From positions 1 to 41,569 of the forward strand of contig CAMFBT010000001.1 in the NCBI GenBank assembly GCA_945948625.1: a DNA stretch of 41,569 nt, given 5' to 3'. This document shows, in pieces, positions 6,077-35,174 of this stretch; positions within the stretch are counted from its first letter, which is position 1; every line of letters begins with the position of its first letter. The DNA is from an uncultured Mycoplasmatota bacterium (lineage in GTDB: Bacteria; Bacillota_I; Bacilli_A; RF39; UBA660). The translations under genes and the position numbers were made by a program. The notes below the pieces were generated by a model. It was not told the DNA's origin. It did no database searches and saw nothing but the letters and a program-made list of their open reading frames with translations.

Positions 6077-6120
6077 CCTTAAAATAGTTATTTATTTTTC
6101 TTTATTAAAAATAAAAAGCA

Positions 6121-6149
6121 TTTACAATTCAAACTATTAATGCTATAAT
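6121..6149 (+). promoter_or_regulatory. Sigma-A type promoter for the coupling-protein gene
   Basis: TTTACA, a 17-nt spacer, then TATAAT with an extended -10 TG (tgcTATAAT). It lies 31 nt upstream of the ATG at 6180, and the RBS GGAGG sits between them. Confidence 0.55.
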
Positions 6150-6179
6150 AATGTTAGATTTTTTGGAGGACGATTAAAT

Positions 6180-14389: not shown

Positions 14390-14397
14390 TAAAACCT

Positions 14398-15390: not shown

Positions 15391-15401
15391 GTGGTGATAT
15401 A

Positions 15402-16376: not shown

Positions 16377-16391
16377 TAAAGTAGGTGTAGT

Positions 16392-17915: not shown

Positions 17916-17925
17916 GAGGTAAAAA

Positions 17926-19041: not shown

Positions 19042-19052
19042 TGGTGATATGT

Positions 19053-19616
19053 ATGATAGAAAGAATAAAAAATAATAAAGCATTAAAAATAATATTAATG
19101 ATTTTAAAAGCAATAGTATCTTTATTTATAGTAATAGTAATTAGTATAATCTTTATTCAGAGAATATCTAATAATAAATTATCATTAGGTGGATATAGTA
19201 TATATACAATTATAACAGAAAGTATGGCACCAAAATATAAAGTATATGATATGGTAATAGCAAAAGAAACAGATTCTAATCAAATAAAAGTAAATGATGA
19301 TGTTGTATATTTAGGAAATAAAGATGATTTTGCAGATAAAATAGTAACACATAGAGTAATAAAAAAAGAAGTACTAGAAGGTAAAAATTATTTTCATACT
19401 AAAGGTATAGCTAACGATATAGAAGATCCCTTAGTTGGAGAAGAACAAATATTAGGAAAAGTAGTATATAAAAGTAGAGTATTAAGTATAATCAGTAAAA
19501 TAGTAAATAATCCTTATGGCTTTTATTTTGTAGTATTTGTTCCTTTTGCCATATTACTAGTAATGGAATTAATAGATATAATAGAAGAGAGAAAAGAAAA
19601 AAATCTAAGTAGGTGA
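19053..19616 (+). CDS. sipW: Signal peptidase I, SipW/archaeal-ER type (S26B), module A
   Basis: Start moved to the ATG at 19053, which follows GGTGA by 5 nt. The Ser box is IITESMAPKY and the His box is IVTHRVIK. It has both N-terminal and C-terminal TM helices. Confidence 0.8.
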   Translation: MIERIKNNKALKIILMILKAIVSLFIVIVISIIFIQRISNNKLSLGGYSIYTIITESMAPKYKVYDMVIAKETDSNQIKVNDDVVYLGNKDDFADKIVTHRVIKKEVLEGKNYFHTKGIANDIEDPLVGEEQILGKVVYKSRVLSIISKIVNNPYGFYFVVFVPFAILLVMELIDIIEERKEKNLSR

Positions 19617-20218
19617 TACTATTGAATGACCAAAAAAAGAAAAGAAAAAAAAGAAGGATTAGATTAAGAACAATATTTTTTCTTGCTATAACACTAGCCT
19701 CAAATAGTTTTGCTTGGTTTATATATTCGACAAAAGTATCAAATAATATTACTGCTAAAGTAAAAAGTTGGCATGTAAACTTTGAAATAGGAAATGGTGA
19801 AGAAATAGAAGAATACTTAGAAATAAATATAGATTCATTATATCCAGGAATGGAAACCTATCAAAAAACATTGAAAGCATCAAATAATGGTGAATCAGAT
19901 GCTTACATAAATTATGAAGTAGAAAAAGCAATTGTATTAGGAGAAAATCTTCTGACTTTAAATTTAACAGATAATCAAATAATAGATAAAATAAGAAATG
20001 ATTATCCATTTACTATTGACTTTAATGTTTCAAATAATATTATATCAAAAGCTGGTGGAGAAACTGAAATTACAATAAGTGTGAGTTGGCCATATGAAAA
20101 TGGTAATGATACAGAAGATACATACTGGGGAAACAAGTCATATGATTATCATCAAGAACATAGTGATCTGCCAAGTATTAGTTTAATAATTAAGATAACC
20201 GCAGTCCAAGTAGAATAG
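19613..20218 (+). CDS. Secreted TasA/camelysin-like protein, class-1 signal motif (SNSFAWFIYS), short form
   Basis: The KKKRKKRRIRLR n-region is followed by a hydrophobic helix and FAWF. IDSLYPGMETYQKTLKASNNGESDAYINYEV resembles the TasA/camelysin PG-x-x-x...N-x-G strand pair. The start is uncertain: GTG at 19613 or TTG at 19622. Confidence 0.6.
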   Translation: MILLNDQKKKRKKRRIRLRTIFFLAITLASNSFAWFIYSTKVSNNITAKVKSWHVNFEIGNGEEIEEYLEINIDSLYPGMETYQKTLKASNNGESDAYINYEVEKAIVLGENLLTLNLTDNQIIDKIRNDYPFTIDFNVSNNIISKAGGETEITISVSWPYENGNDTEDTYWGNKSYDYHQEHSDLPSISLIIKITAVQVE

Positions 20219-20237
20219 AAGAATATTCTTCTTTTTT
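20217..20237 (+). terminator. Rho-independent terminator
   Basis: AGAAGA-atat-TCTTCT hairpin overlapping the TAG stop, followed by T5. Confidence 0.5.
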
Positions 20238-20288
20238 AATACCCTCGTGCCTATAGTCACTCTGGGTTTTAAATGCCTAAAGTCATTT

Positions 20289-20317
20289 AAAAAAGTTTTG
20301 AGCTAAAATCTCAAAAC
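20289..20317 (-). terminator. Rho-independent terminator for the minus-strand gene
   Basis: GTTTTGAG/CTCAAAAC stem (20295-20302 and 20310-20317) with a 7-nt loop. The A6 on the + strand gives T6 downstream on the - strand. Confidence 0.5.
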
Positions 20318-20325
20318 TATAATAA

Positions 20326-20910
20326 TTATTTTAATTGAGTAAAAGACAAATTAACATCCATTTTAGCAGTATTATTATTCTTAGTAGCTTCTGTATCAGC
20401 AGTATTATCCATAGTAGCATTTTCTCCATCATCCCATAAAACATAAACCCTAATATTAATAGGATTAGTATTATTAACTTGTAATACTTGATTAGAAATA
20501 GATTGATTATCTCTATCTAAATAAATAAATTCCCCATTATTAATACTATATTTAGTAGCTATTAAATCAGTAACAGAACTATTATTATTAACCGAAAAAT
20601 TAATACTATATTTAAAAGAAACATCAGCTTCTGTAGCATCTATAACAAGATCAAAATATCCTTCACTAGTAGGAGCAATAATACCATTTGCTATATGTTC
20701 ATTTCCTTCAAATACTGGAGTAATAATAGCATTAGTAGTACTCCCTTCTCTAATATCCTTATTATTAACAAGAATTCTCCATCTAGCTACATTCATTGTA
20801 GCATTTTCACTAGTAGCAGTTAAATACTTAGCATAAGATTCCTGTATAAAAAAAATACATAGTATAAAAGACAAGAAAGCCATAATAAAAATAAAATGTT
20901 TCTTCTCCAT
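20326..20910 (-). CDS. Secreted TasA-like family protein, class-2 signal motif (QESYAKYL); the only minus-strand gene in the window
   Basis: RBS AGGTGAT. It is a paralogue of ORF 33273: VARWRILVNNKDIREG aligns with VAKWNVLINGTDIKSG, IAPTSEGYFDLVIDATEADVSFKYSINF with IAPGTKGYFDIVINPTDTETSILYSITF, and NIRVYVLWDDGEN with TIRVYIKWNNIEEN. Confidence 0.6.
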   Translation of the reverse strand: MEKKHFIFIMAFLSFILCIFFIQESYAKYLTATSENATMNVARWRILVNNKDIREGSTTNAIITPVFEGNEHIANGIIAPTSEGYFDLVIDATEADVSFKYSINFSVNNNSSVTDLIATKYSINNGEFIYLDRDNQSISNQVLQVNNTNPINIRVYVLWDDGENATMDNTADTEATKNNNTAKMDVNLSFTQLK

Positions 20911-21239
20911 AATTACATCACCTATTATACAAAAATTATAACATAATAATAACTAATAATCAATAACAAAAGAATAAAATATAATGTCTAGTATTATGTA
21001 AAGTCGATTATGGTTAATTGAAAAAAGCATTTACTTTTATTAAAACATATGGTACCATTAGTGTAGTTATAGCATAATTATTTTATTATATTTTCACTAT
21101 AATTAATCAAGGAAAGTAAATGTTAATATGAAACATATTTATATATTAAGGGAAAAAAACCAATAATGGTATTAGATGGTTTTAATTTGGTGAGATTAAC
21201 TAAAAGAAATAAAAAAATAAAAAAGTAAGGGAGTAAATT

Positions 21240-21953
21240 ATGGCAAAAGATGTAGTGGTAACAGCAGAAAAAGTCTATGGAAGAAAAAAGAAATATAGTA
21301 GTATAAAACTAATATTATCTATAGTTCTTATAATATTAACATTAACATTTATCATTTTAGGAGTAATATATAAAGGAGGAAAGTTTACAATAACTCTAGA
21401 CAATAGATTATCATCAGAAAGTGGAATAGTAATATATGAAGATTCAGAGATAAAAGAAACAAAAAGAAAATTGTCTGCTAGAGACATAGAATTCATGGAT
21501 AATATATCAATAAATTGGATTCCTCAAAATATAGATACCGAAAGTGATGGTTCTCATAACGGAGAAAACTATATAGCATATACATTCTATATAGAAAACG
21601 AAGGAGAAAAAACAGTAAATTATTGGTATACAATAATAATTGATGATGTCATAAAAAAAGTTGATGAAGCTGCTAGAGTTATGATATATTTAAATGGTAA
21701 TAAAAAAGTATATGCTAAAATAAATTCATTTACTAGTGAACCAGAAAAAGATACAATTCCATTTTATAGTGAAAAAGAAGCAGTATTAGAACAAAGAAAA
21801 GATTTCAAACCAAATGATATAGATAAGTTTACAATAGTAATATGGTTAGAAGGTGATGACCCAGATTGTATAGACAACATATTAGGTGGAGAAATAAAAA
21901 TGCATATGGAAATAAGAGAAGAACATAAGGAAGAGAGCGTAAAGAATGATTAA
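21240..21953 (+). CDS. Membrane-anchored member of the class-1 subunit family (no YAWF motif)
   Basis: RBS AAGGGAG and one TM helix (IKLILSIVLIILTLTFIILGVI). The C-terminal FTIVIWLEGDDPDCIDNILGGEIKMHMEI matches the YMW[IV]EGQDVDCENN box of ORFs 21946 and 35175. Confidence 0.55.
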   Translation: MAKDVVVTAEKVYGRKKKYSSIKLILSIVLIILTLTFIILGVIYKGGKFTITLDNRLSSESGIVIYEDSEIKETKRKLSARDIEFMDNISINWIPQNIDTESDGSHNGENYIAYTFYIENEGEKTVNYWYTIIIDDVIKKVDEAARVMIYLNGNKKVYAKINSFTSEPEKDTIPFYSEKEAVLEQRKDFKPNDIDKFTIVIWLEGDDPDCIDNILGGEIKMHMEIREEHKEESVKND

Positions 21954-22950
21954 TAATAAAAAGAAAAACAAAAAAAGAAAATATAGATTATTTTATTTAT
22001 TATTGCTATTATTAGTAACAACATTATCTTTATCAGTATCATCATATGCTTGGTTTACCACTAATAGATTAGTAAGAGTAGATTTATTAAATGTAAATGT
22101 CAGGGCACAAGGAGGAATAGAAATATCCGTAGATGGAACAAATTGGAAATCATCAGTATCAGTAGAAGATATAATAAATGCAAAAGATACCTATCAGACA
22201 AATACCAATCAAATACCAACAACCATAGAAGCAGTTTCAACGGCAGGTAAAATAAATAATGGTAAAATAGAAATATATCATGGTAATGCAGTAAATAATG
22301 CAGTAGGAGATTATATTCTTGAAACAACAAGAAGTGTTGAAATACAATCAGCAGAGGGTAGTCAAGGAAAGTTTATAACATTTGATTTATTTTTAAAGAC
22401 AAATAAAAATACAGCATTATATTTAACACCAGAATCAAATGCAACCTATAGTGGTGATAAATCAGTTGGAATAGAAAATGCTGTTCGGTTTGCCTTTATA
22501 GAAGAAGGAACAACATTTGTAGGATCTTCATTAAATACCATCCAGTCAATGACCACAAATGATCAGAGTAAAGTTCATATATGGGAACCAAATTATGATA
22601 CACATACAGAGTATGGAATAGAAAATGCCAAAGATATATATAACATAAATATAACAAATCCATCAGAATCATTAAATTATGATGGTGTGATAAGCGAAAT
22701 ATCAAAAACAGCTGGAGTAACAACAAGTACTGCTAATGAGGCAACATACCCAGAATATTTTGCGAGAGTAAAAGTAGATTATTACACAAAGAATAACTTT
22801 GACAACAATATTGAAATATTTACTATTAATAGCGGAATAACAAAAATAAAAGTATATATGTGGATTGAAGGACAAGATGTAGATTGTGAGAATAATGCTG
22901 CTGTTGGTAATATTGCTCTAAATCTAAACTTTAGTACAAACCCATCTTAA
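21946..22950 (+). CDS. Secreted TasA-like large subunit, class-1 signal motif (SSYAWFTT), module A
   Basis: KKKNKKRKYR n-region, a hydrophobic helix, then SYAWFT. It is a full-length paralogue of ORF 35175 (IWEPNYDTHTEYG aligns with IWEPNYDIHTAAG, and YMWIEGQDVDCENNAAVGNI with YMWVEGQDVDCENNASGGNI). Confidence 0.65.
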   Translation: MINNKKKNKKRKYRLFYLLLLLLVTTLSLSVSSYAWFTTNRLVRVDLLNVNVRAQGGIEISVDGTNWKSSVSVEDIINAKDTYQTNTNQIPTTIEAVSTAGKINNGKIEIYHGNAVNNAVGDYILETTRSVEIQSAEGSQGKFITFDLFLKTNKNTALYLTPESNATYSGDKSVGIENAVRFAFIEEGTTFVGSSLNTIQSMTTNDQSKVHIWEPNYDTHTEYGIENAKDIYNINITNPSESLNYDGVISEISKTAGVTTSTANEATYPEYFARVKVDYYTKNNFDNNIEIFTINSGITKIKVYMWIEGQDVDCENNAAVGNIALNLNFSTNPS

Positions 22951-22964
22951 ATAAGATGGGTTTT
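22941..22964 (+). terminator. Rho-independent terminator
   Basis: CCCATCTT-aaat-AAGATGGG hairpin overlapping the stop codon, followed by TTTT. Confidence 0.6.
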
Positions 22965-22966
22965 AA

Positions 22967-22995
22967 TTTACTTATTCTTAATAATATGTTATACT
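22967..22995 (+). promoter_or_regulatory. Candidate promoter of the giant gene
   Basis: TTTACT, a 17-nt spacer, then tgtTATACT (extended -10). Confidence 0.4.
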
Positions 22996-23024
22996 TAATA
23001 TGATATAGATGGTAGGTGGTAGAA

Positions 23025-26000
23025 GTGCAGAAATTAAAAAGAAAAATAAAAGCATTAAAAAATAATACAAAGTTTAAAGTTCGTCTTCTAGTAGGAACAT
23101 CTTCTTTACTACTTTTGATAATAGGAATAACCACATACTTTACTACCTACAGTGATTTAATATTAGAATTCAGTGAAGATCCAGATTATATTGAAAGTTC
23201 TATAAAGAATAATAAAGTAATAGTAAATGATTTAGAGAATGATTATAATTACTATCAAGGACAAAACTATCTAGACAATGATGGAACTCTACCTACAACT
23301 GATAACAAAAATATTTATAATGATAGCACACTAGTTCAAGCCAAGATAACTTACTATAGTGATGATGATAATAATCATAAAGGGTATGTATCTTCTAGTG
23401 AAAGACAGGATACATACATCTATTTCAAAACTTTTTATGTGAATAATAATGGCACTGATGATACTACTGATGACTATGTACTTATTGAATTAATCGATAA
23501 TCCATTTACTGATAGGCCTACTGATAAAGCCTTTAATGGATGGTTTACTGATTACAATGGAGCTACACTAAGTTTTAATAAAGATTATTATGAAAGATAT
23601 GCAAAAGTGCCGGTAACTTATACTGATAATAAACCTAATAAGATAGAAATAACTTTTAGAGCTAGCTGGGTAGGAGCCAAAATAACTACAATAACAAGTT
23701 CTAATAGTTGGAATAGTACGATTGAAAGTTTAAATACTCCTGAAATGCACAAGTTAGAGACTATAATTAATATTTATGAAGATGTCGACATGACAGGATA
23801 TTATCACCAAGTAAGTGTAAGATTTTTTGATAGTTGTACAGGCTACTATAATAATAGAGGTCAAAGACAAAACAACTGTACCTGCTATTCTTTTGGTGGT
23901 TGTACTTACTATGACTTAATCAATGGTGAAAACTTTAATGAAAATGCAACATATTATGAATTACAAAATAATAATATGCAGTTAGTGGATAATAGTACTA
24001 TCAATAGACCACTTATTGAAACAATTGAAGACACAAGTTATGAAAATGGTATTATGTCATCATTTTATCGTAAAATTTTAGTACCTAGAGGAAGTAGTAT
24101 TATTGGCTATTATGATAGCACTGGAAATATTATGACTAGTGGTAGTTGTACGACAGATGGTGGTTGCACTTATTATGAATTAATTAATTATTATAAAAGC
24201 AATAGTACTCCCGAAATATATGATGAAAATGAAGAGTATTATTATTTGACGACTAGGGATACTAATATTATTGTCATGGGCTCTAATATAGAGGGAACTT
24301 GGTCAACTACAGAGGATATTCCTTTTACTGTAACAGCTTTAAATAATGGTACACAAAATAATGTAACATGGAATGCTAATTCCGCTATTAACTGTTATAG
24401 TGATGTTCGAATAGAGAATATTACTTTATATTATGATAGTGTTATAACAGAAATATATGATCCACCATCTAATACAATGGCATCAGGTGTTTTGTATGGG
24501 CGATATAATAATGTAAAATTAGGTAGAGGTCTAACTCAAAATGGCAGTTATCCAACACTTAGAGCAGTAATAGGAGGAAGTAACTCATCTATTGGTAGTA
24601 ATAATTCACCGGCTAAATATAAACTAGTTATAGAAAGTGGTATTTATAATTCTATATCACTAACTAATGGTGCTACCCGGTATGGTGGTTCCACTATATA
24701 TGTTAAAAACAAGGGTGTTTATGGTAATGACTATGATCGTGTAATAAAAGATAATGATAGTCTAGATGTATACTATTGTGCTTCGGGTAGTTGGAGTGGT
24801 ACCGTATATGCGAGTACTAATTCTGCTACTTCTAGCGATATAGCTTTAGATTTAGTTGTCAAAAATGGTAGCTTTGGTAGCAGTAAATATGATCTATCTA
24901 CAGGAATATATGTCGGAGGTAGATATGCCGGTACTCACAATGCCGCTCGAAGAGCTAAAATTGAAGGTGGTTATATCTACAATTTAATTGGAGGACCTCT
25001 TACTAGTAGTAGGAGGAGTAGTGTCAACGATACCTATATTAATATGACAGGCGGGGAAGTAGATATTATAATTGGTGGTGCAGGAACGACCGCTACTTAC
25101 GGAAACCGAATCATATCTGTAACTGGTGGTACAGTTAATTATAGTGTCTTTGGAGGTTCCAATGGTGCAAAAGGTAATGAAGGAGATGGTACTCTAAATG
25201 GAACGCCTTATATCTATATTGGTGGAACTGCTACAATTGGTAATGATACTAATATAAGTAATAATAATAAATTATTTGGGGCAGAATCGGGAAGTGTTTT
25301 TGGAATTGGAAATGGAAAAGAAAATTCTTCTACTATTGGTTCAGCAGATAATTCAATCATCATAATAGATGGTAATTCTAATATTAAAAGAAATATTTAT
25401 GGTGGTGGAAATTATGGTGCTACAGGAGTAAGTAGCAGTTTAAGTAGTACTTATTCAACTATAATAATTAATGATGGCTTCATTGATGGTGATGTCTATG
25501 GTGGCGGTAATAACAATGGAAGTGGTTCTGAGAGTAAAACATCAACAGTTAGCATTACCATGAATGGTGGTAATGTTGTTGGATCAATTTATGGTGGTAG
25601 TAATGAACTTGGTACAATATATGGCTCTACCAATGTAAACATTTTTGGTGGTGAAGTATCAAATAATGTTTATGGAGGAGGACGAGGTGGTTATATTAGT
25701 GATAGTGCTATAGGAACCTTTGTAGTCAGCGATGTCAACATTGTTATAGGTGATTCGAATAGCACTTATACACCAATAATTGATGGAAGTGTCTATGGTG
25801 GTAGTGCTTTTGGTTCTGTAAATGGTAGTGAAAATACAAACACTGTCAGTTCTAGCAAAACAAATGTCACCATAAATAAAGGTATAATAAATAATGTCTT
25901 TGGTGGTGGTCAAGGAAATAATACATATACACCTTATGTACTAGGAAATATTGAAGTAACAGTAAATAATGGAACAATTACTAATGTGTATGGAGGAAAT

Positions 26001-29000
26001 GACCTAAAAGGAAAACCAAATGGAAATATAACAGTAACAATAAATAATGGCACAATTGAAAATACTTATGGTGGAGGAAACGAAACATCCGCTAATGAAA
26101 CAAATGTGTATTTAAATGGAGGCACATCAACTAAATTATTTGGAGGTTCAAATAAAAATGGAGATGTTGTAATTAGTAATGTCACAGCAACAGGTGGAAC
26201 TTGTGAAACTTTATATGGAGGAAATAATGCTGGTGGCACCACCGGAACAACAAATGTTTTAATAAATGGTGGAACTATAAATACAGTATATGGAGGTGGT
26301 GATAAAACCTCAGTAACTACAAGTACAAATGTAGTAGTAAATAATAAAGTAGATACTATTTTTGGTGGCTCAAACCTATCAGGAAACATACCTCTATCAA
26401 ATATTGAAGTAAATAATGCAATAATAAATGCCGTGTATGGTGGTAATAATCAAGGTGGAAAAGTAGAAACAACTAATGTAAACATAAATGGTAATTTTAT
26501 CGATTCTGTATATGGTGGAGGATTAAAAGCTGAAACTACAACTACAAATCTAAATTTAAATTATGGATTAATAAAGAATGTTTATGGTGGAGGAAACGAA
26601 GCTGGAGCTAATGAAACAAATGTTAATTTAGGAGGAGCGGACATAATTAATCTGTTTGGAGGCTCAAATAAAAGCGGAGATGTACAAAATACATATATAA
26701 AAAATATAGAAGATTTCGTAGTTAGCGATTTATCAGCAGAATTTACTATTAGTCAGTCCAATATAAATCAAATTGGAGCTACAGATATTTCTGGAAGTGA
26801 AACTATTACCGTAGAGATAAATAATAATACAGGAGTAACTTTATCAGAATGGGATTTATATATATTAACAAGTGAAAGTATATTTGATTCAAACTGGAGT
26901 TCATCAGAAGTAGAATTTGATAGTATTAATAATATATATCATATAGATGAAACAAATCAGTGGTACGGTACAAATAGTTTAAATAATGGAACACCATTTA
27001 CTTTTGAATTTAATATTCACTCATATGATACATATGAAAACTTTAAAATATATAGTTATATGCTAATAGGATATGATACTAATGGTAATCAATATACAAG
27101 CAAGTTAACCGTAGATAAAATGTATGGTGGAAATAATTTAGGTGGAATTACTAATAATGCTCAAATAGATTTAACCGCAGGTAGTATTAATGTCTTATTT
27201 GGAGGAGGAAATAAAGCAAGTGTAACAAATTCTAGCACAAATATTGATAATGTAGTTATAAATGAAGAAATCTATGGAGGAGGAAATGAAGCTGATGTTT
27301 CATCAGTAATTTTAAATATAAACAATTCTGAAGTAGGAAATATAACAAAAAAAGGAGTAGTTTATGGCGGAGGAAATGCTGCTAAGGTAACAAATAGTTT
27401 AGAACTAAATATAAATTCTTCAGAAATAAATGGTAATATTTATGGTGGAGGAAATAAAGGAAAAGTAGAAACAAAAGCTAAAACTACTATTACTACAAGT
27501 CATATAACAGATAATATCTATGGCGGAGGAAATGAAGCTGAAGTTCAAACCACAGAAGTAAATATAAAACAAAATACTAACATAGATAAGAATATTTATG
27601 GTGGAGGAAATCTAGGTACTGTATTAGGAGAAGCAAATACTGTAATAGAAAACTCAAATATAACAAATAGTGTTTTTGGTGGAGGAAATGCTGCTGAAGT
27701 ACAAGGGAATGCTAATGTAACCATTCATAATAGTATAATTGATGAGGCTATTTATGGTGGAGGAAATGGCGAATATTCAATTGTACCAGGAGATGAAATA
27801 GGAGATCAAAATCCAGCAAAAGTATTAGGAAATACGAACTTATTAGTAGATGAAAATACCAAAGTCAAAACCATTTACGGTGGAGGAAATCTAGGAAAAG
27901 TAAATAAAGATACTAAAATAGAAATAAAAAATATAACAGTTACTGATTCAATTTATGGTGGAGGAAATGCTGCCATTGTAGGAGAAAATACTAATTTATA
28001 TGTATCAAATGTAAATGTAACAAATAGTATATATGCTGGAGGAAATGGTTTATTAGCAGTAGTATATGGAAATACAAACCTAGATATCGATAATAATACA
28101 GTAGTAGGAAAACATGTTTTTGGTGGAGGAAATGCTGCTGCCACTGGTACTGAAGAAAACAATAATTCTAAAGGAATAGTAAACATAGTAGGAGCAACAA
28201 TAAATGGCAATGTTTATGGAGGAGCTAATACCTCACAACTATATGGTGATACTACAGTAAATATAGGAAACTTAACAAGTAGTAACCAAAACCTAATAAA
28301 ATCTGATATTGTAATAGAAGGAACGGTATTCGGTGGAGGAGAAGCAAATGCTAGTGGTAGTGAAGAATATGATTATTCCTTCATAAGTGTAACAGTAGGA
28401 ATAAAAATTAATATTAACGGTTCTGGACATGATACATTTACAATAAAAGGATCAATATTTGGAAGTGGTAATGCTTCTTCAACTACAGGATATAGTTATA
28501 TAGATATCAAAAACTATGGAACAAAAGAAGATATAAAGAGAAATATATCAATTCAGAGGGCAAATATTGTAACATTAGATAATTCATATATTGAATTAAA
28601 AGGTGCAACAGATAGAACAAATGAGTATTCAACAGTATTGTTCTCTTTGAGTAGAATAGATGAATTAAAACTAATAAATAATACATCATTATATCTTCAA
28701 AATGGAGGTAACTTAGTCAAAAAATTATCTAGTTTAACTATAGAAAATAATATTGAAACAAAAGCACAAGTAACTATAGATACTGAAACAAATACTTTTA
28801 CTAGAAATACTAATAATAGAATATATATGTTAGAAGGAAAAAATCTAAATATAGCTACAAATGAAAATATAACATCATTTGGTGAAGTATCTGGAATGAC
28901 TTTCTTTGGTATGTATTTAAATAGTATAAATGGTGATATAGTAACAGCATTATATAATGATTATGATCCATCAGCATCTGTATCATCAGGAGATATTTAT

Positions 29001-31076
29001 TACTTTACAAAAGGTAGTTATGTACTTGGAATGCATAAAACAAATCATGACATAACTGAAGATGGGTTCTATACCAATTATGGAAATGAAGAAGGAAATG
29101 GCATAATAATAAACTATATTGAACCAACTCCAGATAATTCAGATTTCTATATGTGGTCAGTAGGAGAAAAAGTAGATTCATATGAATTAACACTTACAGC
29201 ATCAAAATATTCAACACTTGGTACATATGAATTATCACTATTAAATCATGCAACTGCTAACACAAAATTCTCTATATTAGGTTTTAACTATTCAGCATTA
29301 GATCAAAATATAGTATTAACAGATTATAGAAATATACCTAGAATAGCAGCAACCGAAGAAGATGCAAATACCATTTTTGGATTAAATATGAAATCAGGAC
29401 AAAATGGTTGGATAACAAAAGGAAGTACTAATTTTATAACTGGAGAAAATACAAATGTACAAGGAACAATAGATTATCAAAGAGAAAACTTAGAAGGGGC
29501 TCCTAGTTTAGTATTTTACTTCTACCATTCTAAAAATTTAACTGAAACCCAAAATCTTGGTAGTGTAACAATTTCATTAGTGGCTATAACACCAATAGAT
29601 GATTTAAATAATGAAGTAAAAAGAATAAATATAAATGTAAACTTAAATACAGCATTATATAATACCAATGATTATGAAGGAACTATAACACCAGGAAAAA
29701 AATATGAAATGTTTGCAACTAGTCCTGTAGATATAACAACAAAGAGTAGTTTCAGTGCTTACTATTCATTATATATGGAAAGCGAAACAACACCATATAA
29801 AACTGGATACCATCGTAGTTTAGTATCAACATATTTATTACCAGTAAATACAGAATTAACGATGATTGATTTCCATGTTGAAGATAAACCTGTATACTAT
29901 TATTATACAGTAACAGAAGATGACTATACTTCTTTAGAAGAAGAATATAATCTATATGGAGAAGTATCATATCCATTATCTAAATTTATAAAAATGGGTA
30001 GTACAAGTCCTAATAATAATTATGATGATGCAACCGCTAATACAATATATTATAAAGATGAAAAAGCAATTGAAGAATTTATCTTTATGGTTGACTTTAA
30101 AGATACTAATATTGAGACAGACATCCTAGATAAATCACTATTAATTGAATTAAGAAATAATGATAATCAAACACTAATAAGTGTATTAGGAATAGAACAG
30201 TCCACTATGAAATACAATCTATATAATAATAGAGAAGGAATAATCGAATTATCAGGAAACTTATCTCAAAATACTATTTATCGAGGTAAGAGTACTAACT
30301 TAACATTAGATACAAACTTTATTCAAGATAAAATATCTACAAATACAATCTTTGATACTAACTTTGATGAGCAAAAATTAGGTATAAAGATAACAATTCT
30401 AGATAGTAGAGGAACTCCTCTTACAAGTTCAAGTTTAATGGGAATAAATTATACCTTCAATGGTAATACATATTATCCAAGATATGATGGTACGGTAAGA
30501 ATAAATATTACTGAAAAAGTTGCAAATGCAAGATCAAAGATAATAATTAATACTGAAAATAGTAATCTTTCAAGTGGTGAATATACCCTTCTAATAGAAT
30601 CATTTGGTTCAGCAGATGGAATATATTATGGATTAAATTCATCAGATCAGTTAGAAATAACATTTAATATAGTTGATAATATTTATGGTTTAAAAGTAAC
30701 CACGGATGATAAAATGCTATTTATAAATAAAGATACCGGTTTCACATTAAATGGTAATAATAGTTATGTATATAAGGTAGAATATACATCTGGATTATCT
30801 AATCCAAATACTAGATTAAAATTATTAAGAAGAGATTATACTTCAATATATACAAATGTTTATAACGAAGTAGATTTAAAAGATTATGTAACAAATACAT
30901 TAGAAATAACTTCTAATGACAAAGAATACTATCTGTCTAAAACACCAGTAAATGAAACAACATATTTCTTATACTTTAAAGAAAATTTACCAAATGGGAC
31001 CTATAAATTAGTAGTATCACTATATGATGATAATAACTATATAGGAGAAACATACCAATACATAATAATAAAATAG
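23025..31076 (+). CDS. Giant (about 2,680 aa) secreted beta-solenoid protein with a SipW-type-like N-terminal signal; putative fibre-borne adhesin
   Basis: One uninterrupted ORF. I prefer the GTG at 23025, 5 nt after AGGTGG, over the track start at 23016. The N-terminus is a KLKRKIKALK n-region, then LLVGTSSLLLLIIGI, then TTYFTTYSD. It contains dozens of [VI][YF]GG[GSN]N repeats and has no C-terminal LPXTG or TM anchor. Confidence 0.85.
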   Translation: MQKLKRKIKALKNNTKFKVRLLVGTSSLLLLIIGITTYFTTYSDLILEFSEDPDYIESSIKNNKVIVNDLENDYNYYQGQNYLDNDGTLPTTDNKNIYNDSTLVQAKITYYSDDDNNHKGYVSSSERQDTYIYFKTFYVNNNGTDDTTDDYVLIELIDNPFTDRPTDKAFNGWFTDYNGATLSFNKDYYERYAKVPVTYTDNKPNKIEITFRASWVGAKITTITSSNSWNSTIESLNTPEMHKLETIINIYEDVDMTGYYHQVSVRFFDSCTGYYNNRGQRQNNCTCYSFGGCTYYDLINGENFNENATYYELQNNNMQLVDNSTINRPLIETIEDTSYENGIMSSFYRKILVPRGSSIIGYYDSTGNIMTSGSCTTDGGCTYYELINYYKSNSTPEIYDENEEYYYLTTRDTNIIVMGSNIEGTWSTTEDIPFTVTALNNGTQNNVTWNANSAINCYSDVRIENITLYYDSVITEIYDPPSNTMASGVLYGRYNNVKLGRGLTQNGSYPTLRAVIGGSNSSIGSNNSPAKYKLVIESGIYNSISLTNGATRYGGSTIYVKNKGVYGNDYDRVIKDNDSLDVYYCASGSWSGTVYASTNSATSSDIALDLVVKNGSFGSSKYDLSTGIYVGGRYAGTHNAARRAKIEGGYIYNLIGGPLTSSRRSSVNDTYINMTGGEVDIIIGGAGTTATYGNRIISVTGGTVNYSVFGGSNGAKGNEGDGTLNGTPYIYIGGTATIGNDTNISNNNKLFGAESGSVFGIGNGKENSSTIGSADNSIIIIDGNSNIKRNIYGGGNYGATGVSSSLSSTYSTIIINDGFIDGDVYGGGNNNGSGSESKTSTVSITMNGGNVVGSIYGGSNELGTIYGSTNVNIFGGEVSNNVYGGGRGGYISDSAIGTFVVSDVNIVIGDSNSTYTPIIDGSVYGGSAFGSVNGSENTNTVSSSKTNVTINKGIINNVFGGGQGNNTYTPYVLGNIEVTVNNGTITNVYGGNDLKGKPNGNITVTINNGTIENTYGGGNETSANETNVYLNGGTSTKLFGGSNKNGDVVISNVTATGGTCETLYGGNNAGGTTGTTNVLINGGTINTVYGGGDKTSVTTSTNVVVNNKVDTIFGGSNLSGNIPLSNIEVNNAIINAVYGGNNQGGKVETTNVNINGNFIDSVYGGGLKAETTTTNLNLNYGLIKNVYGGGNEAGANETNVNLGGADIINLFGGSNKSGDVQNTYIKNIEDFVVSDLSAEFTISQSNINQIGATDISGSETITVEINNNTGVTLSEWDLYILTSESIFDSNWSSSEVEFDSINNIYHIDETNQWYGTNSLNNGTPFTFEFNIHSYDTYENFKIYSYMLIGYDTNGNQYTSKLTVDKMYGGNNLGGITNNAQIDLTAGSINVLFGGGNKASVTNSSTNIDNVVINEEIYGGGNEADVSSVILNINNSEVGNITKKGVVYGGGNAAKVTNSLELNINSSEINGNIYGGGNKGKVETKAKTTITTSHITDNIYGGGNEAEVQTTEVNIKQNTNIDKNIYGGGNLGTVLGEANTVIENSNITNSVFGGGNAAEVQGNANVTIHNSIIDEAIYGGGNGEYSIVPGDEIGDQNPAKVLGNTNLLVDENTKVKTIYGGGNLGKVNKDTKIEIKNITVTDSIYGGGNAAIVGENTNLYVSNVNVTNSIYAGGNGLLAVVYGNTNLDIDNNTVVGKHVFGGGNAAATGTEENNNSKGIVNIVGATINGNVYGGANTSQLYGDTTVNIGNLTSSNQNLIKSDIVIEGTVFGGGEANASGSEEYDYSFISVTVGIKININGSGHDTFTIKGSIFGSGNASSTTGYSYIDIKNYGTKEDIKRNISIQRANIVTLDNSYIELKGATDRTNEYSTVLFSLSRIDELKLINNTSLYLQNGGNLVKKLSSLTIENNIETKAQVTIDTETNTFTRNTNNRIYMLEGKNLNIATNENITSFGEVSGMTFFGMYLNSINGDIVTALYNDYDPSASVSSGDIYYFTKGSYVLGMHKTNHDITEDGFYTNYGNEEGNGIIINYIEPTPDNSDFYMWSVGEKVDSYELTLTASKYSTLGTYELSLLNHATANTKFSILGFNYSALDQNIVLTDYRNIPRIAATEEDANTIFGLNMKSGQNGWITKGSTNFITGENTNVQGTIDYQRENLEGAPSLVFYFYHSKNLTETQNLGSVTISLVAITPIDDLNNEVKRININVNLNTALYNTNDYEGTITPGKKYEMFATSPVDITTKSSFSAYYSLYMESETTPYKTGYHRSLVSTYLLPVNTELTMIDFHVEDKPVYYYYTVTEDDYTSLEEEYNLYGEVSYPLSKFIKMGSTSPNNNYDDATANTIYYKDEKAIEEFIFMVDFKDTNIETDILDKSLLIELRNNDNQTLISVLGIEQSTMKYNLYNNREGIIELSGNLSQNTIYRGKSTNLTLDTNFIQDKISTNTIFDTNFDEQKLGIKITILDSRGTPLTSSSLMGINYTFNGNTYYPRYDGTVRINITEKVANARSKIIINTENSNLSSGEYTLLIESFGSADGIYYGLNSSDQLEITFNIVDNIYGLKVTTDDKMLFINKDTGFTLNGNNSYVYKVEYTSGLSNPNTRLKLLRRDYTSIYTNVYNEVDLKDYVTNTLEITSNDKEYYLSKTPVNETTYFLYFKENLPNGTYKLVVSLYDDNNYIGETYQYIIIK
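24960..26697 (+). repeat. Coding repeat array 1 of the giant gene (about 24-26-aa GG-containing solenoid units); approximate bounds
   Basis: Successive units such as YGGGNETSANETNVYLNGGTSTKL, FGGSNKNGDVVISNVTATGGTCETL, YGGNNAGGTTGTTNVLINGGTINTV and YGGGDKTSVTTSTNVVVNNKVDTI. Confidence 0.7.
27120..28500 (+). repeat. Coding repeat array 2 of the giant gene (26-aa IYGGGN-x-A-x-V units); approximate bounds
   Basis: Five consecutive units of exactly 78 nt start at 27360, 27438, 27516, 27594 and 27672. There are at least six exact copies of TATGGTGGAGGAAA plus one-mismatch variants. Confidence 0.8.
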
Positions 31077-31084: not shown

Positions 31085-31204
31085 ATGTCGAGAAAAGATA
31101 TCGAAGAATTAAGCGATGCAGATATAGTAGAATTATATAAAGAAATAAAAGATTTCATAGTTTTTCTTGAAAAAGAAATAATAGGTGATAATAATGCTAA
31201 ATGA
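31085..31204 (+). CDS. 39-aa acidic peptide, possible small ORF
   Basis: Not in the ORF track. A strong RBS (AGGAGGA) lies 4 nt before the ATG. The product is MSRKDIEELSDADIVELYKEIKDFIVFLEKEIIGDNNAK. It overlaps the next gene by 11 nt. Confidence 0.4.
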   Translation: MSRKDIEELSDADIVELYKEIKDFIVFLEKEIIGDNNAK

Positions 31205-32681
31205 ATATAAAAATAAAATTGAAGTTCAAAAAGAAGTATTATTATCACTTCCAAGAAATAATAATAAAAATGAAAAAGTATATCAAGCCAAAATAGGAGA
31301 GTTATTAGAAGAACTACAAAAAGAAAAAGAAGTAGTAGCAAGTGAAATCAGAAAAAGAAGAGATAGATATTTATCTTTAGAACATGACAAAAGTATAGAT
31401 TTACTTACAAAAGAAATAGACTTGCTACTACCATCTATCCATCTATTAAATAATTATAATTCTTCATATGAAAAAAGTAGTTTAGATATAATATTATATG
31501 AATTAGGACATTTCTATAAAACTGACTTAGAAAAAGTAAATAAAGATATAATAAAAGTATTAACAATCTTTTCTACAGTAGGAGTTACTTTAACGGAAGA
31601 AGACTTTAATTATAGTTATTATAGTGATAAATATATGAGAAAGATTCTATTACAAAGTACAAGTGAAGAAGAATTAAAAAACCATTTTGAAGAAATATAT
31701 TGGAAATGTCCTAATATAATAACACATATAACATTAAATCTAAAATATTTATACTATAAAAATAAAAAGAAATTTGATTTATATTATGAAAATAAAGTAA
31801 AAGAATTAGAAGATAGAAATATTATTGAAGCATATAAAGAATTATATATTGAAAGAGAACAAAAAGTAAAAAATGATGCTTATCTATTACAAGGTAGTTT
31901 TTTAGAAGGAAAACTAAATATAGGTGACTATACATTAGATAAAATAAATAAAGCATATAAATCAGTAATAGAGGACCTTCCATCAGAAAAAATAAATAGC
32001 GATATATTAAAGTTATATCATTCATTAATAGAATATAAAAATTACTTAGAATTTAATTATATAATAAATGATATAAAAGAACTATATAAAGAAAGAGATA
32101 AATATAAAAATATTTATAACAATAAGAAAAAAGAAATAGATAAGCTAGAAAGAGCACTTTCAAAGACTAATAAAAAAGTTTTAAAATTAATCTCCAAAGG
32201 AAAACAAGATAAAATAGATGTATTAAATAGTAAAATAAATATTAATATAAATAATTTAAAAAACCTATATGAAGAATTAGAAAAAAATTATTTTCTAGAA
32301 AAAATATCATTACTTGAAGATAGTACAACAATATATGATATTTTGTTATTAGCAATTTCTAATTATAATTACTTAATAGAATTACTAAAGAAAAATGAAA
32401 AAGACTTAGAAGAAATAAATAAATTAAATAATTTTATCAATAATCCTCATAACAGTATTTTAAATAACATTTTAATAGAAGAAGAAAAAGATTTAAGTAT
32501 GTTAATAATGGATAGATATAATTTATTTGGCTTTAATTTAACAAAAGAAAAACTAGAAAAAGATAATATTGAAAATTTAATAAAAGACTTAGAAATAATA
32601 TTAAATAGTATGGCAATGAATAGAGAAGGAATAACTGAAAATAGAATAAAGTTTATTAAAGAAACACAATATTTAGAATAA
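31194..32681 (+). CDS. Cytoplasmic helical, coiled-coil-rich protein of unknown function
   Basis: Start moved to the ATG at 31194, 5 nt after AGGTGA. It has no TM helix or signal peptide and shows Lys/Glu/Asn/Leu heptad-like stretches. Confidence 0.55.
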   Translation: MLNEYKNKIEVQKEVLLSLPRNNNKNEKVYQAKIGELLEELQKEKEVVASEIRKRRDRYLSLEHDKSIDLLTKEIDLLLPSIHLLNNYNSSYEKSSLDIILYELGHFYKTDLEKVNKDIIKVLTIFSTVGVTLTEEDFNYSYYSDKYMRKILLQSTSEEELKNHFEEIYWKCPNIITHITLNLKYLYYKNKKKFDLYYENKVKELEDRNIIEAYKELYIEREQKVKNDAYLLQGSFLEGKLNIGDYTLDKINKAYKSVIEDLPSEKINSDILKLYHSLIEYKNYLEFNYIINDIKELYKERDKYKNIYNNKKKEIDKLERALSKTNKKVLKLISKGKQDKIDVLNSKINININNLKNLYEELEKNYFLEKISLLEDSTTIYDILLLAISNYNYLIELLKKNEKDLEEINKLNNFINNPHNSILNNILIEEEKDLSMLIMDRYNLFGFNLTKEKLEKDNIENLIKDLEIILNSMAMNREGITENRIKFIKETQYLE

Positions 32682-32749: not shown

Positions 32750-33283
32750 ATGAAAAAAGTTTTAAAAATAATAGGAATAATACTAATAGTCATATATGCA
32801 GTAGTGGCTATAACACTTACAATATTTCTACTAAATTACAATAAATATAATATAACAGAAATAAATGATAAGTCATTAATAATTGTAAGAGATGAAGAAT
32901 TAAAACCAGATTTTCAAAAGGGAGATTTAGTAATAGTAAAGAAAAATCAAAATAAAGATATAAAAGTAGGAGATAAAATATTCTTTTATGACAATTATAA
33001 AGATATAGTTTCTGTTAATTTAGGAACAGTATTAGAAAAAGAATCAATAACAAAAGAGGAAACTACATATATTATGGATGGAGATTATGCTGTATCTAGT
33101 GAATATGTAATAGGAACTGCTAAAACAAGTAAATCTTATAGCAATTTAGGAACAATATTAGGAGTACTAGAATCAAGATTCGGTTTCCTATTTATGATAA
33201 TATTTCCTATACTTGTATTATTTATATATGAGATATATGCAGTAATAAGAGAATTAAAGAGTTCAAAAGAAGATGAAGAATAA
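32750..33283 (+). CDS. Catalytically dead SipW-like signal peptidase paralogue (module B)
   Basis: Paralogue of ORF 13892. IVRDEELKPDFQKGDLVIVKK aligns with IVSGSMEPTLNIKDLIVVKN of the active enzyme, so the nucleophile Ser is lost. The His box reads VNLGTVL. The C-terminal TM helix RFGFLFMIIFPILVLFIYEIYAV is conserved. Confidence 0.65.
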   Translation: MKKVLKIIGIILIVIYAVVAITLTIFLLNYNKYNITEINDKSLIIVRDEELKPDFQKGDLVIVKKNQNKDIKVGDKIFFYDNYKDIVSVNLGTVLEKESITKEETTYIMDGDYAVSSEYVIGTAKTSKSYSNLGTILGVLESRFGFLFMIIFPILVLFIYEIYAVIRELKSSKEDEE

Positions 33284-33872
33284 GAGAATATTAATAATAC
33301 TATCCATAATTTTAGTTTTTATAACAATATATATTATAAGAGATACTTATGGATTGTTTGAAAGTAAAAATACAATGATTATGGATAGCGGTGTAGCAAA
33401 GTGGAATGTATTAATAAATGGAACAGATATAAAAAGTGGTGATAATTTTATTGTAGATACTGTAAATATTGATAGTTCAGATAATGTTTTAGGTGGAAAA
33501 ATAGCTCCTGGAACTAAAGGATATTTTGATATAGTTATAAATCCAACAGATACAGAAACATCAATATTATATAGTATAACTTTTGATTTTAGCCAAGTAG
33601 TAGGTAGTATTACTATTGATAAAATAGAAGAACTTACAAGTGGTAATTTAATAAGAACAGGAGAAAATACTTATTCAAAAATAATAACATTAGAAGAAAT
33701 AGAAAATAAAGTAATAAACACAATTCGTGTTTACATAAAATGGAATAATATTGAGGAAAATAATGAAGAAGACAGTAAAATTGGAACAATAAAGGATAAT
33801 TTTATTAGTATTCCAGTATCAGTTTCAGTTATTCAATATTTAGGTGAACCAGTGGAAGAATATCAAAATTAA
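33273..33872 (+). CDS. Secreted TasA-like family protein, class-2 signal motif (RDTYGLFES)
   Basis: MKNKR n-region, a hydrophobic helix, then TYGLF. It is a paralogue of the minus-strand ORF 20326-20910. Confidence 0.6.
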   Translation: MKNKRILIILSIILVFITIYIIRDTYGLFESKNTMIMDSGVAKWNVLINGTDIKSGDNFIVDTVNIDSSDNVLGGKIAPGTKGYFDIVINPTDTETSILYSITFDFSQVVGSITIDKIEELTSGNLIRTGENTYSKIITLEEIENKVINTIRVYIKWNNIEENNEEDSKIGTIKDNFISIPVSVSVIQYLGEPVEEYQN

Positions 33873-33891
33873 TAATAAAGCGGTGATGTAA

Positions 33892-34452
33892 ATGGTAAAG
33901 TATATGAACAAAACATTTCAAGTTTTTCTTGATATCTTAGTATTTATAATCACCGTTTTAATTTTTTTTTCATTATATAATTTTATATCAATAAAACTAT
34001 TACATAAAGAATATCCCAATATATTAGGCTTTACAGCATTTGAAATAGTAAGTGGAAGTATGGAACCAACATTAAATATCAAAGATCTAATAGTAGTTAA
34101 AAATACCACAGATATAAAAAAAAATGATATCATAACCTATATAGATAATAAAGATTTTATAACACACAGAGTAATAAAAATTGAAGGCAACACATTAACA
34201 ACTAAAGGGGATTCAAATAACAGTAATGACGTCAGAATAGATAAAACAAAAATAATAGGGAAAGTAGTATTAATAATACCAAAAGGAGGATTAATAAGAG
34301 AAGTATTTACCACTCCTAAAGTAGTAATATCAATAGTAGTAACACTAATATTAATAAGTTTAAGTGTTTCTTATATACCCAAAAATAAAAGAAAACATAA
34401 AACAACACTAGATGATAAATTCGAGGATCCAAGTTGTATATTTAAGAAGTAG
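33892..34452 (+). CDS. sipW: Signal peptidase I, SipW/archaeal-ER type (S26B), module B
   Basis: The Ser box is EIVSGSMEPT (Ser codon at 34057-34059), followed by KDLIVVKN, the His box FITHRVIKI and TKGDSN. It has both N-terminal and C-terminal TM helices. Confidence 0.85.
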   Translation: MVKYMNKTFQVFLDILVFIITVLIFFSLYNFISIKLLHKEYPNILGFTAFEIVSGSMEPTLNIKDLIVVKNTTDIKKNDIITYIDNKDFITHRVIKIEGNTLTTKGDSNNSNDVRIDKTKIIGKVVLIIPKGGLIREVFTTPKVVISIVVTLILISLSVSYIPKNKRKHKTTLDDKFEDPSCIFKK

Positions 34453-34461
34453 GTGAGTAAT

Positions 34462-35049
34462 ATGTTTGATAGAAGAAAACTATTAAGATCAAATAAACTA
34501 ACAATAGCCATAATATTACTAGCAGTAATATTAACATTAATACCAATTGCATATTCAAAATTATTTTCTGAAAATGATTCAGATGCAAAAATAGAAACAG
34601 CATTCTATATCTTAAATGCCGACTATTACGAAAAAAACATTCATTTAGATAATATAGTGCCTTCAGAAACACCTTATGTATATACCTTCAAAGTATCAAA
34701 TAATGATGGAACAAATAGAGTAGAAACAAAATTAGAATACACTTTGAAAATAGTTACCACTACTAATTTACCATTATCATATAAATTATATATGAATGAA
34801 GATTATAATAATGAAAATAGTACTAATATAATAATAAATGATACAATTGCTAAAACTAGTGAAGATGGAGCTTACTTTAAAACTATGGAAACAAACAAAC
34901 AAACATTTGGCTTTACTACTGATGAAGAAAATATTTATCATTTAGTAATAACATTTCCTAAAGAATATGATAGTTTTGAATACCAAGATATAGTAGAAGG
35001 AATAACAATAAATATTGAATCAAAGCAAATAATAGAAGAAAATGCATAA
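34462..35049 (+). CDS. Secreted TasA-like family protein, class-2 signal motif (PIAYSKLFSE)
   Basis: Start moved to the ATG at 34462, 5 nt after AGGTGA. It has a basic n-region, a hydrophobic helix, then AYSKLF. The N-terminal domain is paralogous to ORF 14398. Confidence 0.55.
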   Translation: MFDRRKLLRSNKLTIAIILLAVILTLIPIAYSKLFSENDSDAKIETAFYILNADYYEKNIHLDNIVPSETPYVYTFKVSNNDGTNRVETKLEYTLKIVTTTNLPLSYKLYMNEDYNNENSTNIIINDTIAKTSEDGAYFKTMETNKQTFGFTTDEENIYHLVITFPKEYDSFEYQDIVEGITINIESKQIIEENA

Positions 35050-35085
35050 AATAAAAAACTTATGCAAAAAATGTCGAATTTTTAC

Positions 35086-35114
35086 TTGCAAATAAAAAAA
35101 AAGTGTGTTATACT
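35086..35114 (+). promoter_or_regulatory. Strong sigma-A type promoter of the module-B large subunit gene
   Basis: TTGCAA (35086-35091), a 17-nt spacer containing A9 (35094-35102), then tgtTATACT (35106-35114). It is followed by a roughly 60-nt leader and the RBS AAAGGAG. Confidence 0.65.
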
Positions 35115-35174
35115 AAAATAGTAATAGTAGGAGAGAAAGTAATTCTCAAATTCTTAATAAAAAGGAGTGTTAAA

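Follow-up and report, generated by a model that had tools for sequence, protein, structure and literature searches.

A giant beta-solenoid protein with a SipW-type-like signal and no recognisable wall anchor, encoded in a conserved gene cluster of uncultured gut Bacilli

How a very long secreted protein could be kept at a cell surface without a wall anchor, and what it might do there, is the question raised by an 8-kb gene of an uncultured Mycoplasmatota bacterium (GTDB lineage Bacilli_A; RF39; UBA660; GenBank assembly GCA_945948625.1). The window analysed here is the stretch of 41,569 nucleotides at positions 1 to 41,569 of contig CAMFBT010000001.1, forward strand, and the gene product is called the giant below; the coordinates of all features are collected in Table 1. 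An initial annotation, made from the sequence alone, had described a giant beta-solenoid protein without a recognisable wall anchor, and our analysis supports this architecture. From the architecture, its conservation, the synteny of the locus and a signal motif shared with neighbouring proteins, we infer, with a probability of roughly 0.45, that the giant is a SipW-processed, sortase-independent and non-covalently retained fibrillar glycan adhesin belonging to a multi-protein surface structure.

The giant open reading frame (ORF) is real and is conserved in full length. The window is AT-rich (21–33% GC), and the single 8-kb ORF seen initially was confirmed on the plus strand (23016/23025–31076). 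The same 2683-aa product, with a GTG start at 23025, was called independently on a metagenome contig of identical sequence, and AGGTGG is located 9 nt 5' of this start. The gene does follow a terminator-like hairpin, as had been noted. The hairpin is not universal, and in one related locus (L001) the gap between the upstream class-2 gene g10 and the giant gene is merely 19 bp. A promoter of its own, also proposed, found no support: sigma-70-like sites occur at chance density (148 observed; shuffled sequences, 137.7 ± 11.8), and the 74-bp gap 5' of the gene contains none of those listed.

The giant belongs to a family without a database model. Neither the whole protein nor any of ten segments matched Pfam, and no NCBIfam or PDB sequence match was obtained. 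A protein search retrieved 572 relatives, of which more than 100 are full length at 43–75% identity and none has a Pfam domain; the names they carry in the source records do not go beyond "hypothetical", "beta strand repeat-containing" or "S-layer family protein". Relatives were detected in 312 species-representative genomes by a GTDB scan, from which 80 loci were kept and listed. The titles of the listed loci refer to uncultured Bacilli, Tenericutes and "Clostridium/Mycoplasma sp. CAG" bins, with a few bins labelled as unrelated taxa (e.g., Muribaculaceae, Lachnospiraceae, and Vescimonas coprocola). Where sources are named, they are human gut, rumen and other animal gut, and one carrier is a closed 1.26-Mb genome. 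We found no description of the giant family or of its cluster in the literature.

Conservation extends to the gene neighbourhood. The giant gene lies inside a cluster of 17–18 genes (13892–36254), the order of which is kept across distant species; the cluster flanks (FtsY, a Clp-like AAA protein, MurE, and DUF1015) are not conserved. A class-2 small gene is located upstream of the giant gene in 65 of 68 loci, g12 adjoins it downstream in 67 of 72, and a SipW gene is present within the captured locus in 57 of 65.

The N-terminal half of the mature protein is predicted to fold as one unit. The AlphaFold2 (AF2) model of residues 44–900, which, like the other AF2 model of the giant, rests on a 17-sequence alignment, had a predicted local distance difference test score (pLDDT) of 87.5 and a predicted template modelling score (pTM) of 0.85. 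It shows short strands every ~25–30 residues and indicates a single rigid body, in which the N-terminal modules would cap the solenoid and continue into it. A Foldseek search with this model gave no PDB or BFVD match at E < 0.001 and nothing at E < 0.2 in the PDB; the weak neighbours (E 0.24–3) are beta-helical proteins, namely IgA1 protease, Hap, tailspikes, ice-binding proteins, and FHA. A region of ~850 residues is, therefore, confidently modelled without a fold neighbour. The two Cys-containing modules recognised initially are true homologous units with the pattern G.Y..G.....TC....GCTYY, and their cysteine pairs (C287/C293 and C375/C381) are invariant across 25 orthologues. The module likened to the Listeria/Bacteroides-type repeat did not survive the test with PF09479 (Flg_new), for which the window segment showed no match at E ≤ 5 and the N-terminal regions of 57 orthologues showed none at E ≤ 1; the likeness is limited to an F-x-G-W...A-S-W motif. 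A Pfam scan of the same region in the 57 orthologues also gave no match.

The cap is followed by two solenoid arrays split by an inserted domain of 148 residues, in agreement with the initial annotation. Motifs of the type [VILAFM][YFW][GA][GS][GSNA] occur 32 times in the protein compared with 0.8 ± 0.9 times in 2000 shuffles, and the glycine autocorrelation peaks at 25 residues in array 1 and 26 residues in array 2. No Pfam beta-helix repeat (PbH1, Beta_helix, or autotransporter passenger) was detected in the window protein. Because the insert is placed exactly between rung type 1 (LFGGSN.SG) and rung type 2 (YGGNN.GG), the solenoid is continuous, and the insert leaves and re-enters it in phase. 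The rungs of array 1 form a three-rung super-repeat. Comparison of gene length across orthologues located the variation in array 1 (447–909 aa) and the first half of array 2 (46–899 aa), and the second half of array 2 is constant. DNA-level tandem repeats are absent, and the rungs are thus old and diverged, which makes length variation by slipped strands unlikely.

The C-terminal ~850 residues are non-repetitive and beta-rich, as had been claimed, and the AF2 model of residues 1760–2683 (pLDDT 75, pTM 0.47) is almost all-beta. The best Foldseek matches of this model are the immunoglobulin (Ig)-like domains of PrgB (4e-15), followed by macroglobulin (MG) domains of alpha-2-macroglobulin, RbmA, repeats of large adhesion proteins, and an archaeal S-layer protein. 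The length of this region is invariant across orthologues (~±5 aa), the terminal ...YxYIIIK is conserved, and the region forms, together with the last part of the solenoid, the most conserved portion of the giant. Thus, the arrays vary and the C-terminus is constant, a pattern of length variation that appears stalk-like at the sequence level. A profile search with the C-terminal 924 aa retrieved 713 representatives of clusters formed at 50% identity, 329 with E-values below 1e-30; the search was filled by the family itself, and no remote relatives were visible among the representatives. The listed full-length proteins are ~1600 to 7511 aa long, and nearly all of them have the module at or within ~100 residues of the C-terminus. 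One exception (P0314) has ~230 further residues after it. No LP.TG motif is present anywhere in the giant, and no hydrophobic run besides residues 21–43. Pfam wall-binding domains (SLH, CWB2, LysM, choline-binding, SH3b, and GW) were found neither in the window protein nor, at E ≤ 1, in the C-terminal regions of 17 orthologues. The absence of a sortase motif, hydrophobic tail, choline-binding or SLH-like repeats, and of any recognised wall-binding domain in the last 850 aa, is therefore a property of the window protein and of these orthologues alike.

The N-terminus carries the signal that connects the giant to its neighbours. Its basic stretch, hydrophobic core and TTYFTTYSD are as described initially, with a core of 15 aa. 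Directly after the hydrophobic region (h-region), [ST][YFW][GASC] is found in 70 of 73 giant orthologues, with the consensus T-Y-[G/S]↓[D/E]-[L/F] (the arrow marks the predicted cleavage) and column frequencies of T85/S14, Y78/F21, G57/S35/A5, then D/E/A, and then L/F/Y; T41 is nearly invariant. The giant itself has T/S at −3, an aromatic residue at −2, a small residue at −1, and a hydrophobic or aromatic residue at +2. Seven small secreted proteins of two families (class 1 and class 2) are co-encoded with it, and a comparison of their predicted cleavage sites with that of the giant revealed the same site class throughout: all eight proteins have [ST]-[YF]-[GAS] and then x-[FYL] directly after the h-region. 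Among orthologues of the small proteins, the motif is kept in g08 (64/66), g10 (65/65), g14 (53/56), g17 (55/58), g07 (38/48), and g02 (33/48), and it is nearly absent from the other membrane proteins of the cluster used as controls (g04 0/52, g06 0/50, and g09 4/70). The predicted site fits the −3/−1 rule and seems to mirror the TasA cleavage site T-W-A↓A-F, in which P2' is Phe (PMC10269814). In profile comparisons (hhalign), the giant N-terminus aligned with class-1 N-termini with a probability of 88.5% (E 2.7e-6), in a register that places T-Y-G on T-Y-A and VYVNDL on ILVNN.D; the controls gave E 5.5e-5 (the transmembrane-only g09) and E 3.5e-4 (SipW). The cap region gave nothing against class-2 proteins. 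A SipW-class signal on the giant is plausible and, as a prediction, well supported by motif and context.

Class 1 and class 2 are related to each other (hhalign E 1.9e-6), and the initial annotation had taken the small neighbours to be TasA-like, which was not borne out by hidden Markov model (HMM) or profile-profile comparison. PF12389 (TasA/camelysin) matched 0 of 58 class-1 members, and the class-1 and class-2 profiles had 0 matches in the PDB. As a reference, a TasA sequence was checked against PDB 8AUR (E 5e-151) and a 39-member TasA alignment was built. The hhalign comparisons with this alignment were non-significant (class 1, E 0.022, over the last two strands; class 2, E 0.27, in the signal region), and those with TasA alone were not significant either. 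With the class-2 alignment as query, a protein search found nothing but unnamed family members. The SipW/TasA-type family is described as so diverged that ordinary searches fail, and several paralogues and large surface proteins are often encoded together in its operons (PMC11580942).

The insert in the solenoid is a likely member of the carbohydrate-binding module family CBM2, judged by resemblance of its orthologues. PF00553 (CBM_2) matched 13 of 35 orthologous inserts at E ≤ 1 (best E 2.2e-4), and the other Pfam matches were CBM49 (n = 2, best E 2.7e-5) and CHB_HEX (n = 2). Scores of the insert profile against CBM2 chains in the PDB were marginal, with E 0.0055 for EngD of C. cellulovorans (3ndy_E), 0.3 for Cex, and 0.33. 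Approximately 75 residues of the insert align with CBM2, and the V.V.N....W.L and W-S-S segments and the second aromatic position are kept. The SNWSS of the insert aligns with QAWSS of Cex; at the second site, the window has W where the consensus has Y, and the first Trp was not identifiable. A weak Pfam CBM_2 match (E 0.061) was also seen in the class-1-like protein g07, and CBM2-like folds may thus not be confined to the insert of the giant but extend to the small subunits.

We propose the following pathway for the giant, which would be a Sec-exported, rod-like surface protein of ~286 kDa and a component of a structure built by the 17–18-gene cluster. One of the two SipW-type peptidases of the cluster would remove the signal peptide at T-Y-S↓D. 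The mature chain would fold outside the membrane into, as modelled, a rigid cap, a long beta-solenoid with a species-variable number of rungs, and about half a dozen beta-sandwich domains. The CBM2-like module would loop from the side of the solenoid and, by its family resemblance, may bind a glycan that is insoluble or polymeric, for example plant fibre, chitin, or the surface polysaccharide of another cell. Since a covalent wall anchor is lacking, the rod would be retained through protein-protein association, possibly with the seven small secreted proteins of the same signal class, and the contact would be made via the class-1-like N-terminal segment or via the invariant C-terminal module. 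A comparable arrangement is known from the SipW operon of Clostridium perfringens, which encodes TasA-like subunits and a larger accessory protein, and the fibre of which is located on the membrane, not on peptidoglycan (PMC11580942).

Several observations weigh against this adhesin reading. The giant has no match at E ≤ 10 to TIGR04088 (cognate_SipW, cutoff 19 bits), a model that among the cluster proteins matches g17 alone and below its cutoff (10.7 bits, E 0.48). The profile match between the giant and class-1 N-termini is only ~20-fold better than that of the transmembrane-only control, and the region of 8–9 residues between the hydrophobic core and the predicted site is long for a cleaved signal peptide. 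For the SipW-type signal of the initial annotation, the conserved motif and its sharing with the neighbours stand, and the model match and a profile score clearly above the control do not; tempered by the controls and the TIGR04088 result, the SipW-class signal is supported but unproven. The small neighbours are not demonstrably members of the TasA family, so that the "fibre" is an assumption. The insert of the window protein has no CBM_2 match by itself, and the insert is absent from ~40% of orthologues; glycan binding is, therefore, not the universal function of the family. Finally, every organism that carries the giant gene is uncultured.

The alternative that survives best, although we consider it unlikely, is that the giant has an uncleaved signal-anchor. 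It would then be a type II membrane protein with the solenoid passing through the wall and the C-terminal Ig-like chain pointing outward, and the T-Y-[S/G] motif would serve packing or recognition rather than cleavage. Retention would need no extra partner, the h-region is the only hydrophobic stretch in the giant, and g09 of the same cluster resembles such an anchor; the missing TIGR04088 match, the long distance from the h-region to the putative site and the transmembrane-only control at E 5.5e-5 would also suit an anchor. However, G/S/A/C at −1 and T/S at −3 are kept in 70 of 73 orthologues while the h-region varies freely, and the same site class recurs in seven small neighbours beside two SipW genes with predicted activity. 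Furthermore, an h-region of 15–17 aa is short for a stable transmembrane helix.

It is improbable that the giant is a non-adhesive envelope component, such as an S-layer-like coat or a spore-surface/exosporium appendage, with the cluster as an envelope or spore morphogenesis module. The NCBI name of one orthologue ("S-layer family protein"), the archaeal S-layer protein among the fold matches and the position of some loci beside spoIVA and spoVIF are in line with such a role. TasA was originally described as a spore component that depends on SipW, the source names include "spore coat-associated protein N", and a protein so highly conserved and so nearly universal in the clade looks like part of a housekeeping structure. 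However, SLH, CWB2 and other S-layer anchoring domains are absent, the spo neighbourhood is not systematic since the cluster flanks are not conserved, and a stalk of variable length with a CBM2-like insert would be more expected of an adhesin than of a lattice protein. Release after cleavage, by which the giant would serve as a scaffold of the extracellular matrix or as a glycan tether away from its producer, is highly improbable. The invariance of the C-terminal module and the tight co-inheritance with membrane components (g04, g09, and the SipW homologues) suggest, indirectly, an assembled structure on the cell, although there is no anchor of any kind, the SipW operons of Bacillus and Clostridium are matrix operons (PMC11580942), and the Vibrio matrix scaffold RbmA is among the fold matches. 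Readings as a toxin, polymorphic toxin or phage tail fibre were rejected, as no C-terminal toxin domain, no phage genes in the cluster and no viral fold match were found.

Table 1 Features of the giant gene and its cluster in the window (positions in nucleotides; arrows mark predicted cleavage).
Feature	Position	Strand	Description
Giant gene	23025–31076	+	2683 aa; mature form ~2640 aa, 286 kDa, isoelectric point 4.5
Signal peptide, residues 1–43	23025–23153	+	Basic n-region, 15-aa h-region, c-region TTYFTTYS; predicted cleavage T41-Y42-S43↓D44
N-terminal cap, residues 44–480	23154–24464	+	F-N-G-W module at residues ~167–215; two homologous C-x5-C modules
Beta-solenoid part 1, residues 481–1214	24465–26666	+	Degenerate rungs, then 24–25-aa rungs; three-rung super-repeat
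CBM2-like beta-sandwich insert, residues 1215–1362	26667–27110	+	13 of 35 orthologous inserts match PF00553
Beta-solenoid part 2, residues 1363–1830	27111–28514	+	26-aa IYGGGN rungs
Constant C-terminal module, residues 1831–2683	28515–31073	+	Predicted chain of beta-sandwich (Ig/MG/FnIII-like) domains; ends ...YQYIIIK
g01, g02, g03	13892–16376	+	Catalytically dead SipW homologue; secreted protein, T-Y-G↓R-Y; cytoplasmic protein
g04 and g05	16392–19041	+	Membrane-anchored McrB-like AAA+ P-loop protein, 507 aa; DUF2357 protein, 371 aa
g06	19041–19616	+	SipW-type (endoplasmic reticulum (ER)/archaeal-type) signal peptidase I, copy 1; TIGR02228 58.7 bits, cutoff 51.85
g07	19613–20218	+	Class-1-like small secreted protein; N-S-F-A↓W-F
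g08	20326–20910	-	Class-1 small secreted protein; E-S-Y-A↓K-Y
g09	21240–21953	+	Membrane-anchored, 237 aa; YKGGKFT after the transmembrane segment; C-terminal W.EGDDPDC motif
g10	21946–22950	+	Class-2 small secreted protein; S-S-Y-A↓W-F; C-terminal W.EGQDVDCENN
Terminator-like hairpin after g10	22938–22963	+	11-bp stem, 4 GC pairs, T-rich tail
Micro-ORF	31085–31204	+	39 aa, acidic, probably helical; directly after the giant gene; in 62/68 loci
g12	31185–32681	+	Lys/Glu-rich, ~498 aa; no signal peptide, no family match
Second module, g13–g17	32750–36254	+	Dead SipW homologue, class 1, SipW copy 2, class 1, class 2; sites g14 T-Y-G↓L-F, g16 A-Y-S↓K-L, g17 T-Y-A↓W-F

The cluster gives the impression of a duplication, with two modules (dead SipW, class 1, SipW, class 1, and class 2) flanking the giant gene at 13892–22950 and 32750–36254. 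Both SipW-type peptidases (g06 and g15) have the invariant Ser/His/Asp, and g15 scores 78.2 bits with TIGR02228 against the same cutoff as g06. The dead SipW homologues (13892–14389 and 32750–33283, plus strand) are paralogous membrane proteins of 165–177 aa with full-length homology to SipW (hhalign E 9.5e-10). They have neither the catalytic Ser, SGSM.P being replaced by V.Dd.L.P, nor the His, and, by sequence, they look like pseudo-peptidases, one heading each half of the cluster. The most conserved protein of the cluster is g04 (median 77% identity), and g05 has a DUF2357 (McrC N-terminal-like) domain but lacks a nuclease domain; the two are apparently an McrBC-like pair co-opted for a secretion or surface cluster, not for restriction. 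A C-terminal W.EG[DQ]D.DC.[DN]N motif with an invariant Cys is common to g09, g10 and g17. Three proteins of the cluster have neither a signal peptide nor a family match, among them the product of the micro-ORF (MSRKDIEELSDADIVELYKEIKDFIVFLEKEI...), which has its own AGGAGG, is probably helical, and was also called by the independent gene caller.

Orthologues without SipW neighbours were looked for, and the synteny holds except for rare unlinked copies such as that of L024 (CAKOSZ010000006.1). The giant gene of L024 is 98% identical to that of L014, in which it is located just downstream of cluster genes, with one unrelated ORF of ~850 aa in between; in L024, it stands alone among unrelated genes (a MurE-like gene and others). 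The contrast points to a recent relocation of the giant gene or to mis-assembly. In three related loci (L001–L003, ~22600–24100), spoIVA follows the cluster and spoVIF is located upstream, a linkage not kept in other loci, and some hosts look like spore-formers from this linkage in one lineage. The 297-aa AAA+ ORF of the window (12922–13815, plus strand) has a Clp-like N-terminal half and may be a truncated form; its counterparts in two loci have 293 and 816 aa. Further upstream, a conjugative element is represented at positions 31–8303 (plus strand) by genes for a TrbL-like protein, a VirB4/TraG-type ATPase, an M23 peptidase/lysozyme cell-wall hydrolase, and a VirD4/TraG coupling protein; the genes that directly follow encode RNase Y, a GH3 NagZ-like enzyme, and FtsY.

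A wider hypothesis, which we regard as rather unlikely to hold, is that the cluster at 13.9–36.3 kb is an undescribed surface-appendage assembly system of monoderms. Its machinery would consist, with comparable doubt, of the membrane McrB-family AAA+ ATPase and its DUF2357 partner, together with the two active and two dead SipW homologues. The product, in an equally speculative extension, would be a heteropolymeric fibre of seven small subunits from two new families, with the giant as a terminal glycan-binding adhesin joined via its class-1-like N-terminal strand. By analogy, such an appendage might follow the logic of type IV pili or of chaperone-usher tip adhesins, built on a type I (ER-type) signal peptidase, a notion we hold just as loosely. 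If true, it could be the organelle that ties reduced-genome gut Bacilli to fibre particles or partner cells.

The family, for which there is no Pfam or NCBIfam model and no named or solved relative, is present in full length in more than 300 species of uncultured, low-GC Bacilli of gut and rumen, whose genomes are very small. The ~22-kb cluster makes up ~2% of the 1.26-Mb chromosome, which suggests that it is central to the life of these organisms, and the most probable role of the giant would be attachment to dietary fibre, mucus, or other cells. With these findings, the SipW-operon paradigm would come to include a giant accessory protein and a cluster with an ATPase.

Compared with the CBM2 domains of cellulases and xylanases (Cex and EngD), the module of the giant has marginal scores and is placed in a solenoid loop, not appended to an enzyme. 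The beta-helical adhesins of diderms (FHA, Hap/IgA1 protease passengers, and chlamydial Pmp repeats) share Gly-rich rungs of ~25 aa and an extended beta-helix geometry with the giant, and they are the sole fold neighbours of its N-terminal half, all weak and non-significant (E > 0.2). In contrast to them, the giant has no autotransporter barrel, TPS domain or Pmp Pfam match, and its host looks like a monoderm with peptidoglycan genes (MurE). Gram-positive fibrillar adhesins (PrgB, SasG/Aap, and Rib-type stalks) are likewise long rods with a variable-length stalk and an Ig-like chain; however, the giant has no LPXTG/sortase signal, its stalk is a beta-solenoid instead of tandem Ig repeats, and its Ig-like chain is the constant rather than the variable part.

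The tapA-sipW-tasA operon of B. subtilis and the sipW-tasA/calY genes of B. cereus also place a dedicated ER/archaeal-type signal peptidase beside several secreted proteins without a sortase anchor, the signal peptides of which end in T-aromatic-small↓x-aromatic, and they include a larger accessory protein (TapA) with the N-terminal logic of the fibre subunit. Unlike in Bacillus, neither the giant nor its small neighbours match Peptidase_M73/TasA by HMM or profile-profile comparison, the accessory protein is ten times larger and forms a beta-solenoid, and two dead SipW homologues and a membrane AAA+ ATPase are among the 17–18 genes of the cluster. In the sipW-bsaA-bsaB-bsaC operon of C. perfringens, BsaC is a 70-kDa vWA protein, export of which depends on type IV pilus genes; neither vWA nor type IV pilus genes were found in the present cluster. 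The two systems have in common a SipW operon with several divergent small paralogues and a large accessory secreted protein (PMC7395162, PMC11580942), and the C. perfringens fibre, assembled from a family too divergent for BLAST, is attached to the membrane and not to peptidoglycan (PMC7395162, PMC11580942).

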